DNA of 45,917 nt from a phage (GCA_014750165.1 GCA_014750165.1_4319.1), one strand, 5' to 3'; shown: positions 14,045-36,217, counted from the first letter of the stretch. Program-made: numbers and translations. The notes: generated by a model not told the origin, from the sequence alone.

Positions 14045-14065
14045 TTTAGCAATTAGTGCTATTCG
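14045..14065 (-). promoter_or_regulatory. gene-boundary palindrome cassette (minus orientation), upstream of cor-like gene
   Basis: Reverse complement reads GAATAGCACTAATTGCTAAA then CGCAAGG..TGCG hairpin, TACTAT, CATCGAAACGA; also supplies stop of the MTase-like gene. Confidence 0.5.
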
Positions 14066-14735
14066 CCAAAAATACAGCTCTTGCAAATCCACGAGGTGTA
14101 AGACTGCGAATTACCTTTGTTTTCTTGCTCTTCCCGCCTAGCTTCTTGTGCTGGTCTGAGTATCCATCATTAACGTCAACTGGTGAGGCATGAGGCCATT
14201 TAAACCCATTGCCAGACCAAATGCACGTCTTCTTAGGATATGCGTCTCTTGGCTTTATTAGGTCGCTAAAAAACGGGTGTAAATCATCTTCCGGCAAATA
14301 GCCTCCGTATTCGTAAGGGTGAAACGTGTTATCAGGTTTACGCCAGAGCGATGACAGCACGCTGACTGGGTTCTCAATCATGTATGGAACTCCGTATTTT
14401 TCAGCCAGTTTAAAAGCAACCTTGCAAGTCTCTGCCGCCTCAATTTGGAAGTTTTGGTTGGCTAGGCGCTTACGCTCAAAGTGTGCTGCCCCGCTCACGG
14501 CTAAATCCGTACAGGGCGGGAATGCCATGATAAAATCAGGCTTCACATCAAAATCAAAACTGGAATCTATCCAGGCGTTAACGTATGTAATGTTCTCATG
14601 TTCAACTCTTGCGTTTAAGTAGCTATAGCTCCCGTGGTCAGACTCATCAAAGTTGAAGCAGTAGCAAGTGTGACCAGCTTCAGCCCAATCCTTCACAGCT
14701 AGACCAGAACCATCAAATAAAGACCAGATAACTAT
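14046..14735 (-). CDS. DNA C5-cytosine methyltransferase-like protein (divergent)
   Basis: Motif IV-like FPPCT and motif VI-like IENP in track ORF 14046..14696; motif I-like SLFDGSG is encoded in the same frame just upstream (to stop at 14754-14756), where no ATG/GTG/TTG exists; 14735 is a candidate ATA start 7 nt after GAGGA. Confidence 0.5.
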   Translation of the reverse strand: MVIWSLFDGSGLAVKDWAEAGHTCYCFNFDESDHGSYSYLNARVEHENITYVNAWIDSSFDFDVKPDFIMAFPPCTDLAVSGAAHFERKRLANQNFQIEAAETCKVAFKLAEKYGVPYMIENPVSVLSSLWRKPDNTFHPYEYGGYLPEDDLHPFFSDLIKPRDAYPKKTCIWSGNGFKWPHASPVDVNDGYSDQHKKLGGKSKKTKVIRSLTPRGFARAVFLANSTNC

Positions 14736-14791
14736 TTTTAAATCCTCGTTAGTTTAAGTGCGGCGATTATACCGCACAGAATTTATTGTTC

Positions 14792-14810
14792 TTTAGCAAT
14801 TCGTGCTATT
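14792..14810 (-). promoter_or_regulatory. gene-boundary palindrome cassette (minus orientation), upstream of MTase-like gene
   Basis: Reverse complement AAATAGCACGAATTGCTAAAG; downstream TGCGG-TATAAT-CGCCGCA inverted repeat; overlaps Rha gene stop. Confidence 0.5.
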
Positions 14811-15453
14811 TCTTTTCCAGCAGCAGCTTGATGTCAATGCCGAGATTATTCTCAATCAATCCGGTCAGCGCATCATTCTTTTCTTTAAGGGCGAAGCATT
14901 GGGCTTCATATTTAAATCTCTCCTCCATCTCATCCGATCGACTAACCCAACATTGTCTAGCCTCACAAGCCAGCATATCGAGCTTTTCATCGGTATTCTT
15001 ATCCATGAGTAAAATCTCATTTATTCTTTGCTCTGCAACAATTCGCTGGCTCAGGTGTGCATTTTGCGCATTAGCCACACCAAGCATCATTCGAGCCTCT
15101 TTTAACTCATCAATGCTTACCATCTGGCTGATTACTTCTGCTTGCTTTTTAACTAATGCCTCCAGCTCATGAAGTCGACGGATTACTTTGTGTCGAAGCA
15201 CGACACTGTAGCCAGTGATTAGCGTTTCAGTGAGTTCCTTGTTGAGTAAAATCTCAGATGTATAGCCTCGATTGTCTGTAAGTAGTTGATAATCATCATG
15301 CCCCAAATCTGGGGCATCGTTATAATGTAACAATTCATTGATCATTTCCTTTGTGTCGCGAACGACGTGATCATGACGTTTGCCGGTTAACTCTGCGATT
15401 TCCTTTGTGCTCATCATGGTTTTTGGTTGTTCTTTGTACGCTTTAATGTTCAT
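14806..15453 (-). CDS. Rha-family phage regulatory protein
   Basis: STKEIAELTGKRHDHVVRDTKEM matches Rha-domain signature; start set at internal ATG 15453 (MNIKAYKEQ...) rather than track start 15534. Confidence 0.55.
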   Translation of the reverse strand: MNIKAYKEQPKTMMSTKEIAELTGKRHDHVVRDTKEMINELLHYNDAPDLGHDDYQLLTDNRGYTSEILLNKELTETLITGYSVVLRHKVIRRLHELEALVKKQAEVISQMVSIDELKEARMMLGVANAQNAHLSQRIVAEQRINEILLMDKNTDEKLDMLACEARQCWVSRSDEMEERFKYEAQCFALKEKNDALTGLIENNLGIDIKLLLEKK

Positions 15454-15548
15454 TTTAATCTCTCTATATGTTTTGACTTCGAAAATTTCGTATTCAAGCA
15501 GCACCATTGCCGCCATGAGCCTAAATATACCCAAAGATACCCAGTTGT

Positions 15549-15570
15549 CTTTAGCAAATCGTGCTATTTA
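15549..15570 (-). promoter_or_regulatory. gene-boundary palindrome cassette, variant (minus orientation)
   Basis: Reverse complement AAATAGCACGATTTGCTAAAG, 22 nt upstream of TATATT; upstream of Rha gene. Confidence 0.4.
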
Positions 15571-15664
15571 TAGCCAATTTCACCATAAATCACGGTTACA
15601 CGTAACCGATGTAACTCGATGTATACAATCTCATCCGCGGAAAATGATATACGCGCTGTTACGC

Positions 15665-15935
15665 CAATTTACGCAACAGTTACATTAAAATATCTATATA
15701 TATCAACCTTTTACTCTTATTATTATTATTATATATATTACTGTGTATATCATGTAACTACTTCTATAGAGTGTTCCGGTTATAATTTTAATATCATGTG
15801 ATTTTATACAGTATTGCACGGCAGCTATACCAATGCACCATCAGCAATAAATGATATACACGATATACACGCCGGTTACATTGAGCTATAGCTGGGCTTA
15901 GATGCCAAAAAACGTAACTAATGGCAATACCTACA
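15665..15935. repeat. AT-rich intergenic repeat copy A with (TTA)n tract
   Basis: Left arm ~95 bp and right arm ~50 bp closely similar by eye to 35041..35295; contains TTATTATTATTATTATATATATTACTGTGTATATCATGTAAC; strand-switch region. Confidence 0.6.
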
Positions 15936-16252
15936 CGGAATTACAAGGATTCACGCGTAAACTTAAATCAACGATTGGCAAAACCAATTGGACTGGCTAC
16001 GGTGACGAATATATAGTTAACCCATCGAAAGCAAGCAACCAGAGAGATATAGAAATGGTAAAGAAGATAGATTTGTACTCAGCTCACACCGTAATACTGC
16101 CTAGCTATGCTCCGGTTTTTATTGGTGTAACTTACGAAATAGCTCTTAAATTATGCGAGTCATCATATGGTAAAGACTGGAAAAATAAATCAATTAGAAT
16201 AGAAAAGACAACTAAAGAGCATATCGAAATCATCGTGGGGTTGCAAAAATGA
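15902..16252 (+). CDS. hypothetical early protein
   Basis: First gene after repeat A; 116 aa; no recognisable motif. Confidence 0.4.
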   Translation: MPKNVTNGNTYTELQGFTRKLKSTIGKTNWTGYGDEYIVNPSKASNQRDIEMVKKIDLYSAHTVILPSYAPVFIGVTYEIALKLCESSYGKDWKNKSIRIEKTTKEHIEIIVGLQK

Positions 16253-34696: not shown

Positions 34697-34748
34697 ATCT
34701 ATCTCCTCGTTTTGATGAGTTAACTATATCCTCCATGACCCCCAATGT

Positions 34749-34770
34749 CTTTGGCAAAAAGTGCTATTCG
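34749..34770 (-). promoter_or_regulatory. gene-boundary palindrome cassette, variant (minus orientation)
   Basis: Reverse complement CGAATAGCACTTTTTGCCAAAG then TATAGT and CATCAAAACGA. Confidence 0.4.
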
Positions 34771-35040
34771 TTAGATTTATTGATTGTTGCATATATTGCA
34801 ATGATTATCATGACTATTGCACATATGGCAATATTGCTTCAGATGCAATGATGTTTTTGATTGTTGCGAAAAGTGAAATGAAGTGGTGAGTGAGTGAATG
34901 AAAGATGGATGGACTACCATACAAGTTGATTTTTATTCTTGCTGAGCCATTTTCACGCATACGCGTTATAAAAGTTATGCCTTGTGGATGATGCCACCCT
35001 CCGCAGTAATCGTGCACGCCTATAACGCTGAATTACGCAA

Positions 35041-35295
35041 TGGTTACACTATAATATCTATATATAACAACCATTTAGTATAATTATTATTATTATATAT
35101 ATTACTATGTATATCATGTAACCACGCATCCGGCGGGGGTCGATAGTTTTTCTATGAAAATGACATTTTCTATATATATAAGGATAGGCATATACCCTCC
35201 CCGATTTCCGCGGAAATCCATACACAGGCAAATTACATACGCTATAGCTGGGCTGAGGTAGCAAAAAGCGTAACCGGGGCCAATATAAACACGAA
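35041..35295. repeat. AT-rich intergenic repeat copy B with (TTA)n tract and relic gene start
   Basis: Arms match 15665..15935; right arm retains an ATG-less in-frame relic (GTAGCAAAAAGCGTAACCGGGGCCAATATAAAC) of the 15902 gene start. Confidence 0.6.
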
Positions 35296-35372
35296 ATAAC
35301 ACTTGATAACGTGTATATGTGTGTTATTATGGATTCATCTTAACGAAGGGCAACCAATCAGGAGTAATGAAT

Positions 35373-35891
35373 ATGTCAGAACATAAAGAAGCAGTAAGTC
35401 TCGGTGAGGTGGTTCGTTACATGGCTGGCCAGGCTTTGGCTAGCGATAATAAATCATTTGCGGTTCCATTGCGCATGATCGTACAGCAAGTGTATGGACT
35501 TGATAAAGTGGATATGATGAGGGTGTACGAAGAGGACCTTACGCCTGGTGGTAAGTATCATCTCAAGAAGCTGAAGGCATCATACGTTTCAAACACAGTA
35601 AGCCGCATGCCTGAAATCAAAGCTGCTAACGTCCGGTCCATGTTCTCACTGAAGGACATGGAGTTTAATGAGGAGGAAGTTCGATGTGCGGTAATCTCAC
35701 TTGTGCCAGGCGCTATCAATACCGGGTCGCGTAACAAAGCAGAAGCAGAGAAGGAGGCGGCTATCATTGAAAAATTCAAGAAGCGACTCTTATCCGTTAC
35801 GCCAAGCGTCATTCACTTGAAAGGTGAGGAGCTTCAGGGTGCAATGTTCGCACTGTCCGCATACCAGGAACTTATTAAGGAGACAAAGTAA
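35373..35891 (+). CDS. hypothetical early protein
   Basis: Start at MSEHKEAV after AGGAG; first gene after repeat B. Confidence 0.45.
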   Translation: MSEHKEAVSLGEVVRYMAGQALASDNKSFAVPLRMIVQQVYGLDKVDMMRVYEEDLTPGGKYHLKKLKASYVSNTVSRMPEIKAANVRSMFSLKDMEFNEEEVRCAVISLVPGAINTGSRNKAEAEKEAAIIEKFKKRLLSVTPSVIHLKGEELQGAMFALSAYQELIKETK

Positions 35892-35987
35892 CAGACTACC
35901 ATACCACTTGCGGTACAGCGAAGAAGATGTGGAGAGGGCGATTGAGTTCTACCGGAAAGCTAAATCACTACTGAATGGTGAATATTA

Positions 35988-36215
35988 ATGCTTATAAAAT
36001 GCGTGTATGCAAGGCAAGCCAATCACCACAACCTTTCAGTTGTAAATGGTGGGATATACTCGGCAAAGCCAATCACTCGCTTTAATGGCTCATACTACAT
36101 CAAGGTTGATGGCAATGAGTACATGGTGAAGACGATAGGTGAAGCTCTTATGATAAAAAGCCTTGGCGTCATAATGGCTAAATTCGAAATCTTTCACAAT
36201 AGCACTAATTGCTAA
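35988..36215 (+). CDS. hypothetical protein
   Basis: 75 aa; C-terminal NSTNC-stop supplied by palindrome element. Confidence 0.35.
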   Translation: MLIKCVYARQANHHNLSVVNGGIYSAKPITRFNGSYYIKVDGNEYMVKTIGEALMIKSLGVIMAKFEIFHNSTNC

Positions 36216-36217
36216 AC
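36198..36217 (+). promoter_or_regulatory. gene-boundary palindrome cassette, variant
   Basis: AATAGCACTAATTGCTAAAC. Confidence 0.4.

Follow-up and report, generated by a model that had tools for sequence, protein, structure and literature searches.

Why do unrelated proteins of a single phage end in the same 5 residues, NSTNC? The question arises from a stretch of phage DNA of 45,917 nucleotides (nt; GCA_014750165.1), here called the window and always meant at its full length. Copies of a short repeated element, AATAGCACGAATTGCTAA, lie at its gene junctions and close many of the genes that precede them. The initial annotation, which covered positions 14046 to 36217, viewed the element as a palindromic, universal gene terminus joined to a start signal for the next gene, and as a junction that could favor the exchange of gene cassettes. 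We discuss the copies of the element, the unit to which it belongs, its likeness to a binding site of the bacterial host, and its part in gene ends and cassette exchange. The units are probably class II promoters that depend on the host activators MarA, SoxS, or Rob, and the stop codons and protein tails would be a by-product of genome compaction.

A repeated element of T1-like phages

Fourteen copies of the 18-mer AATAGCACGAATTGCTAA are present in the window with at most 3 mismatches, against an expectation of 0.04, and none of 100 shuffled sequences reached 14. These copies are co-oriented with local transcription; the sole exception is the copy at 21261 (+). A looser pattern adds 6 copies of a T-type form (ATAGCACTTTTTGYTAA), at 2340, 7412, 22793, 27919, 28481, and 34751 (−), and the marbox matrix scan described below adds a core-only copy at 22314–22328 (−). 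The total is 21 units.

The window is about 86–88% identical in alignment to the Escherichia phages BEK3, Msk, and G8 and to the vB_EcoS (Veterinaerplatzvirus) group, and BEK3 is classified in the Drexlerviridae, Braunvirinae. This identity and this classification place the window as an Rtp-like member of the Drexlerviridae, a relative of coliphage T1. Comparisons were made with the complete genomes of BEK3, G8, Rtp, and T1, and with about 120 element-bearing stretches of T1-like viral contigs.

The repeat itself is already known. A passage in the re-annotation of phage TLS describes a 21-nt direct repeat, aaATAGCACnnnTTGnTAAAA, in 21 copies that run along transcription about 76 nt before start codons; it notes the repeat also in T1, Rtp, and Rogue1, and proposes stoperator-like, enhancer-binding, or UP-like roles (PMC11447400). 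Judged by its sequence, the element of the window is this published direct repeat of T1-like phages.

Anatomy of the unit

A consensus of the unit was drawn from 546 unique contexts. It begins with (a)AATAGCAC(GAA/TTT)TTG(C/T)TAAAA, in which the element core reads GCAC(G/T)(A/T)(A/T)TTG(C/T)TAAA, and continues into a variable spacer. A TATAAT-like −10 hexamer lies exactly 21 nt past the 18-mer, and 76% of the contexts have a G at −14, as in extended −10 promoters. A C-A step about 7 nt after the hexamer marks the predicted transcription start; it is followed by a conserved leader, ATCGAAACGA, a ribosome-binding site, and an ATG at a median of about 75 nt from the start of the element. This fixed arrangement bears out the earlier suggestion that the element marks a start signal for the gene downstream. 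The predicted transcribed leader, ATCGAAACGA(A/G)AC, lies about 52–65 nt past the element start (for example, at 36882–36895) and is conserved across units and across the family, regardless of the gene downstream.

Many units also carry a hairpin. When folded, the 36-nt segment from the element to the predicted start has a mean minimum free energy of −9.5 kcal/mol, compared with −4.3 in shuffles, and 75% of units hold a hairpin of −5 kcal/mol or stronger. In about half of the units the hairpin lies around the −10, and only 3–4% of these are followed by a T-run. In about a quarter it lies in the spacer or partly overlaps it; hairpins wholly in the spacer have at least 5 T in the next 8 bases in 29% of cases and at least 4 T in 45%. 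A clear terminator shares bases with the −10 at 27919 and at 22314.

An inverted repeat of 5–9 bp surrounds the −10 in about half of the units and would place it in a loop. The stems that bracket it vary from copy to copy yet stay complementary, as in GGGGTAA/TTACCCC, GTGGTG/CACCAC, and GGGGAAT/ATTCCCC. Examples are found in the window at 36849–36882, 17430–17463, 25598–25631, and 14740–14792 (−), and in T1 at 4361–4395 and 4881–4915.

A match to the host marbox

The marbox is an asymmetric site bound by single molecules of MarA, SoxS, or Rob. The consensus marbox from a chromatin immunoprecipitation sequencing (ChIP-seq) study of Escherichia coli MarA is 5′-gcactaattgctaaa-3′ (PMC5684230). 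The copies at 14046 and 36198 match it at 15 of 15 positions, and 7 window copies at 14 of 15, as does the common G-type form. With a weight matrix made solely from the 31 E. coli MarA ChIP-seq sites of the same study (PMC5684230), the window has 16 sites that reach 16 bits, where shuffles have 0.04, and 20 that reach 14 bits, where shuffles have 0.76. Two window sites reach the matrix maximum of 19.4 bits; the median for the E. coli host sites is 12.9 bits. The element varies at positions 9–11 and 15, where the published E. coli MarA sites also vary, and among the sites of that study those of marRAB and ypeC are similar to the T-type copies (PMC5684230).

Nearly all of the top matrix matches are elements. 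The one clear exception is intragenic, at 26649–26663 (−), where a marbox match of 16.5 bits (GCACTAATTGCTAAT) lies within a plus-strand gene block and has no −10 at the unit distance.

The geometry of the unit is also that of known marbox promoters. In class II promoters a forward marbox overlaps the −35 position, and the criterion applied here was forward orientation, such overlap, and a box centered between −36 and −55 (PMC12052159). The phage box spans about −50 to −31 from the predicted start, in forward orientation and with GCAC distal as in micF, which is class II placement. The micF promoter is the structural model of class II activation by Rob and SoxS; in its complexes GCAC forms the A site at about −47 to −44, and the center of the box is near −41.5 (PMC9178005; PMC9638938). 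The spacing agrees to the nucleotide: the 546 phage contexts have GCAC-N31-hexamer, and E. coli micF, read from a genome sequence, has GCAC-N31-TAGAAT.

A tblastn search of 1.2 Mb of T1-like DNA, made with approximate queries, found no homologue of MarA or SoxS (best E = 0.49). We read the units as host-dependent promoters because of the marbox match, the class II geometry, and this lack of a phage MarA homologue. In the open-access literature, we found no paper that contains the element's sequence string and none that links Drexlerviridae or phage promoters to MarA, SoxS, or the marbox. The marbox match, the class II geometry, the overlap with gene ends, and the bounding of cassettes by the element appear to be new.

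Gene ends and shared protein tails

How does a probable promoter site come to shape the ends of proteins? In the window, NSTNC tails close 4 open reading frames (ORFs), 14046..14696 (−), 29026..29586 (+), 33639..33803 (−), and 35988..36215 (+), through the codons AAT AGC AC(G/T) AAT TGC TAA. The TAG at element positions 3–5 ends 5 others: 14806..15534 (−), 24874..25293, 36698..36835, 37779..37970, and 39572..41143. Direct reading of the sequence thus confirms the gene ends as first noted. The range first given was too narrow, as there are 21 units. The third frame is also closed at 2 copies, 17412 and 33024 (−), where the element shares its first A with a TAA that belongs to the upstream gene itself. 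In 14 of the 21 units a co-directional upstream gene has its stop within the 18-mer, and 2 further stops fall within 4 nt of it.

The same holds across the roughly 120 T1-like contigs. In 274 of 366 unique contexts (75%), the stop of an upstream ORF of at least 40 amino acids overlaps the element; it lies 2–30 nt upstream in only 16 of the 366, and in the others it is farther off or there is none. Family-wide, genes either reach into the element or end well before it.

As the initial annotation had supposed, the tails are encoded by the element and are not conserved protein sequence. It had proposed a comparison of orthologues, and in that comparison of tails among T1-like phages no orthologue was found that has NSTNC without the element; the tails follow the presence of the element and the frame in which it is entered. 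Methyltransferase orthologues end in ...LANSTNC in BEK3, in ...LANQK where the TAG frame is used, and in ...AIANSTFC where the element is T-type; those without the element end in ...LANSK or in ...LSNANVPY, the latter at a terminator. A single A at the 5′ edge of the element makes the difference between kinase orthologues that end in ...RDHLK and in ...RDHLNSTNC. One VRR-NUC orthologue ends in ...SNSTNC, and the window protein ends in ...MISK.

In all, 118 unrelated upstream protein families end in the element, with NSTNC in 13 and NSTFC in 6, and 19 of the 40 families that have at least 3 distinct members use more than 1 frame. By family, the majority frame is TAG in 78, and the other two frames in 19 and 21. 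The TAG frame leaves the shortest tail; its preference could be due to selection against longer tails, to mutational origin, or to inheritance through recombination.

Conservation separates the site from its use as a terminus. The ATA before GCAC is conserved at 96/95/96% in the 85 copies (anchored on GCAC...TAAA) that close no ORF. We regard the stop codons as incidental, since copies that no gene uses as a stop keep the TAG bases just as well. In addition, element positions −1 and 0 are unconserved, so that the third frame has no built-in stop. The constraint is on the site and not on the stops, and the notion of a universal gene terminus as the element's function is set aside. Nor is the element functionally a palindrome: its dyad, TAGCA-N5-TGCTA, has only 5 bp per arm and lies within a site that matches an asymmetric, monomer-bound one. 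The shared NSTNC tails are best read as a by-product of genes packed against the element. In this manner, where a genome is compact, a regulatory site under constraint can dictate the C-terminal residues of unrelated proteins, and annotators should not take tails such as -NSTNC for homology.

A model of host-activated promoters

Each element would be the upstream half of a compact junction between two genes. The unit has an 18-bp gap from the box to the TATAAT-like −10 and no −35 hexamer; a MarA-family monomer would replace the contact of sigma region 4 with the −35 and recruit RNA polymerase. Rob may be the likeliest default activator, because it is made constitutively. Transcription would start at the A of the conserved CATCGAAACGA leader. 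In a tight genome with a site that cannot change, upstream coding regions would have been trimmed until they ran into the element. Because the site happens to hold both AA-TAG in one frame and AAT AGC ACG AAT TGC TAA in another, unrelated proteins would come to end in ...K or in ...NSTNC; genes in the third frame would bring their own TAA, overlapping the first A. The variable 21-nt spacer would usually carry a hairpin, in some cases a true terminator, and a unit of about 80 nt would combine stop, hairpin, promoter, and leader. About 20 such units, in the same orientation within blocks, could serve as homology patches for the gain, loss, and swap of cassettes.

Several points weigh against host-activated promoters. 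Unstressed cells contain little MarA and SoxS, and Rob reportedly stays largely inactive before induction; it would be odd for a virulent phage to rely on such regulators. The predicted transcription start is placed by the −10 alone. To judge by the G at −14, many units could act as extended −10 promoters and need no activator. The host marbox consensus before GCAC is AYn, and the phage ATA is firmer than that, which may point to a different or additional binder. Finally, the copy at 21261 has no usable −10 and would have to act otherwise, if at all.

A broader proposal is made tentatively, as we hold it somewhat less likely to be true than false: the Drexlerviridae may have given most of their early and middle promoters to Rob, MarA, and SoxS, through about 20 consensus-strength class II marboxes per genome. 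If so, phage expression would be tied to gut bile salts, oxidative stress, or antibiotic cues, and replicating phage DNA could soak up the regulators and blunt the host mar/sox/rob response. T1-like infection would depend on host stress signaling if Rob, MarA, or SoxS drive these promoters. T1-like phages are common laboratory contaminants as well as therapy candidates. Such a dependence would bear on the interplay of phages and antibiotics.

Alternative explanations

The main rival to host activation is a phage regulator that binds the element as an operator or stoperator-like site and switches about 20 promoters together. A candidate exists in the conserved Cro/C2-like helix-turn-helix (HTH) protein 22308..22781 (−), the counterpart of T1 gp23 and Rtp52, which matches a "transcriptional regulator" PHROG (E = 2e-81). 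A copy of the element lies 12 nt from this gene's start codon in the window, BEK3, G8, Rtp, and T1, an arrangement that looks like autoregulation; a core copy overlaps the gene's last codons, and a reversed copy abuts the start of the tail-fiber gene. Stoperator-like and enhancer-binding roles were raised in the passage of the TLS paper (PMC11447400), and the element has the partial dyad. The arms of this dyad are only 5 bp long, however, and T-type copies disrupt it (TGTTA); the conservation is asymmetric and tracks the monomeric marbox position by position. A dimeric operator, considered on account of the dyad, was reduced to this rival after the asymmetric marbox match. Under a phage regulator, a match of 15/15 to the host consensus and a spacing identical to that of micF would be coincidence, and we consider the explanation unlikely. 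Quite unlikely as well are factor-independent sigma-70 promoters, in which the element would be an UP-like or displaced −35-like contact and its likeness to the marbox inconsequential. TTGCTA does resemble a −35 hexamer, many units have an extended −10 by virtue of the G at −14, and UP-like elements were suggested in the TLS passage (PMC11447400). Nevertheless, TTGCTA stands 22 bp from the −10, which is 5 bp off register for a −35, the conserved G/C positions are unlike A/T-rich UP elements, and a generic sigma-70 scan misses the units as a class. TTGCTA as the −35 of a canonical sigma-70 promoter was rejected: the 22-bp distance recurs in every copy, and −35 to −30 reads AAAAcn.

Two further explanations look beyond the promoter, and both seem very improbable. 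One holds that the stop codons themselves are selected, as a universal three-frame translation terminator at module boundaries. It draws on the 75–79% of elements that close an upstream ORF and on the lead of the TAG frame among families (78 against 19 and 21). It is already disfavored by the equal conservation of TAG and TAA bases in copies that close no ORF and by a third frame in which positions −1 and 0 supply no stop; moreover, the same bases are required for the marbox match. The other places the action of the element in RNA, where it and the downstream hairpin would form a signal for processing, antitermination, or 3′ ends in read-through transcripts. A hairpin does follow in 75% of units, and the element is able to form a 5-bp stem of its own; yet the fixed distance to the −10 and to the conserved start region favors promoter geometry at the DNA level, the position of the hairpin varies, and half of the hairpins bracket the −10 without a T-run. 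Other sigma factors were also considered and rejected. Sigma-54 promoters read TGGCAC-N5-TTGC, with the start about 12 nt downstream; the element's TAGCAC-N3-TTGC has AG for GG and is 2 nt too short, and its −10 lies at a fixed distance. For sigma-32, the CCCCAT-like discriminator is 30 nt from TTGCTA, too far by the consensus. Searched in viral contigs, the 15-mer consensus gave many single matches in unrelated contigs, which by rough judgment are compatible with chance for a 15-mer.

Cassette exchange at units

Do the junctions also act as points of exchange? The initial suggestion that they favor cassette exchange by recombination holds in part. In 30 cases across the family, two elements of one genome have a lone counterpart in another, and exactly 18 nt separate the flanks. 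Among 149 unique pure indels, 23 have both ends in units, 56 have one end, and 70 have neither; the last group, 47%, counts against units as the general route. The 23 indels with both ends in units have a median flanking repeat of 45 nt, and units cover 6% of the sequence. The excess over a gene-junction null is about 2–3 fold, a rough estimate that assumes, again roughly, that about a quarter of co-directional junctions carry a unit. Recombination at units is real, and it is one route among several.

Individual cassettes make the pattern visible. BEK3, G8, and Rtp lack a 291-bp cassette that carries the gene 25371..25577 and is bounded in the window by the units at 25289 and 25580. At its site, BEK3 and G8 have one hybrid unit with the crossover in the 18-mer, and in Rtp the crossover is in the leader. 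In G8 the missing segment is exactly the 747 bp that separate the unit at 14046 from that at 14793, and Rtp lacks everything between 14046 and 15551. These units would give the Drexlerviridae a route for shuffling small genes like that of the promoter-early stem-loop (PeSL) cassettes of T4-like phages.

Small accessory genes adjoin units in one genome and are missing in relatives, several of them with only one boundary in a unit. They include window 28003–28485 and 7483–7968, whose positional counterparts in G8 and Rtp are annotated as HNH endonucleases, a G8 methyltransferase gene at 7197–7661, and a BEK3 ORF of 60 amino acids at 25024–25203. The endpoints of BLAST high-scoring segment pairs were tried as a test of breakpoints, with 5.1% in 18-mers compared with 1.2% expected by length. 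The test is noisy because many endpoints mark divergence within a gene, and the flank-collapse and pure-indel analyses were used instead.

Units across the window

On the minus strand, the unit at 14046..14063, whose core matches the consensus at 15/15, supplies the NSTNC end of the DNA methyltransferase gene 14046..14696 (−) (PHROG 757, 8.6e-80) and is the predicted promoter unit for 13733..13978 (−). The unit at 14793..14810 (−) ends the Rha-like gene 14806..15534 (−) with its TAG and would serve 14046..14696 (−). The unit at 15551..15568 (−), in a divergent intergenic region with no upstream gene, is the predicted promoter unit for 14806..15534 (−). On the plus strand, the first A of the unit at 17412..17429 (+) completes the TAA of the exonuclease gene 16447..17412, and the unit is predicted to serve the Erf gene 17486..18136.

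The copy at 21261..21278 (+) is odd in lying on the strand opposite to both neighboring genes. Its reverse complement stops 6 nt short of the tail-fiber ATG, the usual place of a Shine-Dalgarno sequence, and its own −10 is poor and 2 nt off register; the copy is also kept in BEK3, G8, Rtp, and T1.

Two units flank the HTH regulator gene. The core-only unit at 22314..22328 (−) has the marbox core GCACGAAAAGCTAAA (16.3 bits) in the last codons of the gene, and a CATAAT at exactly N31 in the loop of the gene's terminator hairpin; the primase gene is next. The T-type unit at 22793..22810 (+) lies in the divergent regulator/helicase region, 12 nt from the regulator start codon as in the relatives named above.

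Further along, the TAG of the unit at 25289..25306 (+) ends the VRR-NUC gene 24874..25293 (Pfam) and marks the left edge of the 291-bp cassette; the unit at 25580..25597 (+) marks the right edge, and the upstream stop ends 2 nt earlier. At the T-type unit 27919..27936 (+), the TAA of the gene 26784..27920 overlaps the first 2 bases, and a terminator hairpin fills the spacer and extends into the −10. The T-type unit at 28481..28498 (+) ends, by its TAG, the gene 28003..28485, the positional counterpart of the annotated HNH endonuclease gene of G8. The unit at 29569..29586 (+) provides the NSTNC end of the dNMP kinase gene 29026..29586 (+) (PHROG 139).

Three units on the minus strand follow. 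A degenerate unit at 33024..33041 (−), whose first A completes the TAA of 33041..33448 (−), is the predicted promoter unit for 31383..32966 (−); a AACAGCAC variant at 33639..33656 (−) gives the NSTNC end of 33639..33803 (−); and the T-type unit at 34751..34768 (−) stands 45 nt from the upstream gene and has a spacer of 22 nt. The remaining units are on the plus strand. The unit at 36198..36215 (+), again with a core of 15/15, gives the NSTNC end of 35988..36215. The unit at 36831..36848 (+) ends 36698..36835 by its TAG and has the 7-bp hairpin GGGGTAA/TTACCCC around its −10. TAG ends are also provided by the unit at 37966..37983 (+) to 37779..37970 and by that at 41139..41156 (+) to the large terminase gene 39572..41143, named by alignment to the annotated large-terminase genes of BEK3 and Rtp; the latter unit is the predicted promoter unit for 41214..41603. 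The T-type unit at 2340..2357 (+) lies after a terminator in the tail-gene region, where the real upstream gene ends 33 nt earlier. The T-type unit at 7412..7429 (+) ends the minor tail gene 6661..7416 by its TAG and precedes 7483..7968, the positional counterpart of the Rtp putative HNH endonuclease rtp40. The window also holds a tRNA-Arg gene (anticodon TCT) at 38659–38736 (+), which related T1-like phages are reported to have as well.

Comparison with known systems

The closest known systems are the class II marbox promoters of the host, exemplified by micF. They share with the phage units an identical or near-identical 15-bp core in forward orientation, a −35 that is missing or poor, the GCAC-N31 distance to the −10, and the 18-bp gap from the 20-bp box to the −10. 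The phage units differ in several respects. They are found in a virulent phage, at about 20 per 46-kb genome; they are far closer to the consensus than most host sites, with an unusually fixed flanking ATA; and they have a hairpin or terminator nested in the spacer and a conserved leader that would be transcribed.

The 21-nt repeat of TLS has the same sequence, orientation, distance of about 76 nt, and A/T/G middle-triplet subtypes as the element of the window. The passage that describes it is silent on the marbox identity, the fixed −10, stop-codon overlap, and repeat-bounded cassettes (PMC11447400). A repeat left unexplained in papers on T1-like phages matches a well-studied host activator site in class II geometry.

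Two other phage systems are instructive. The PeSL cassettes of T4-like phages also combine a repeated promoter with a stem-loop motif, lie between small variable early genes, and bound indels or replacements that arise by recombination between copies (PMC2839356, PMC4122927). In contrast to PeSL, where the hairpin is beside the promoter, the hairpin here is inside it, flanked by the activator site and the −10; T-runs follow only a minority of the hairpins, and the unit is an activator site with a −10 and not a strong −35/−10 promoter. Stoperators are not known to be tied to a −10 at a fixed distance. Those of mycobacteriophage L5, an analogy drawn in the passage of the TLS paper (PMC11447400), also occur as many short, asymmetric copies along transcription in early regions. 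The L5 sites are bound by the repressor of a temperate phage, whereas the present family is virulent and its site matches the consensus of a host activator.

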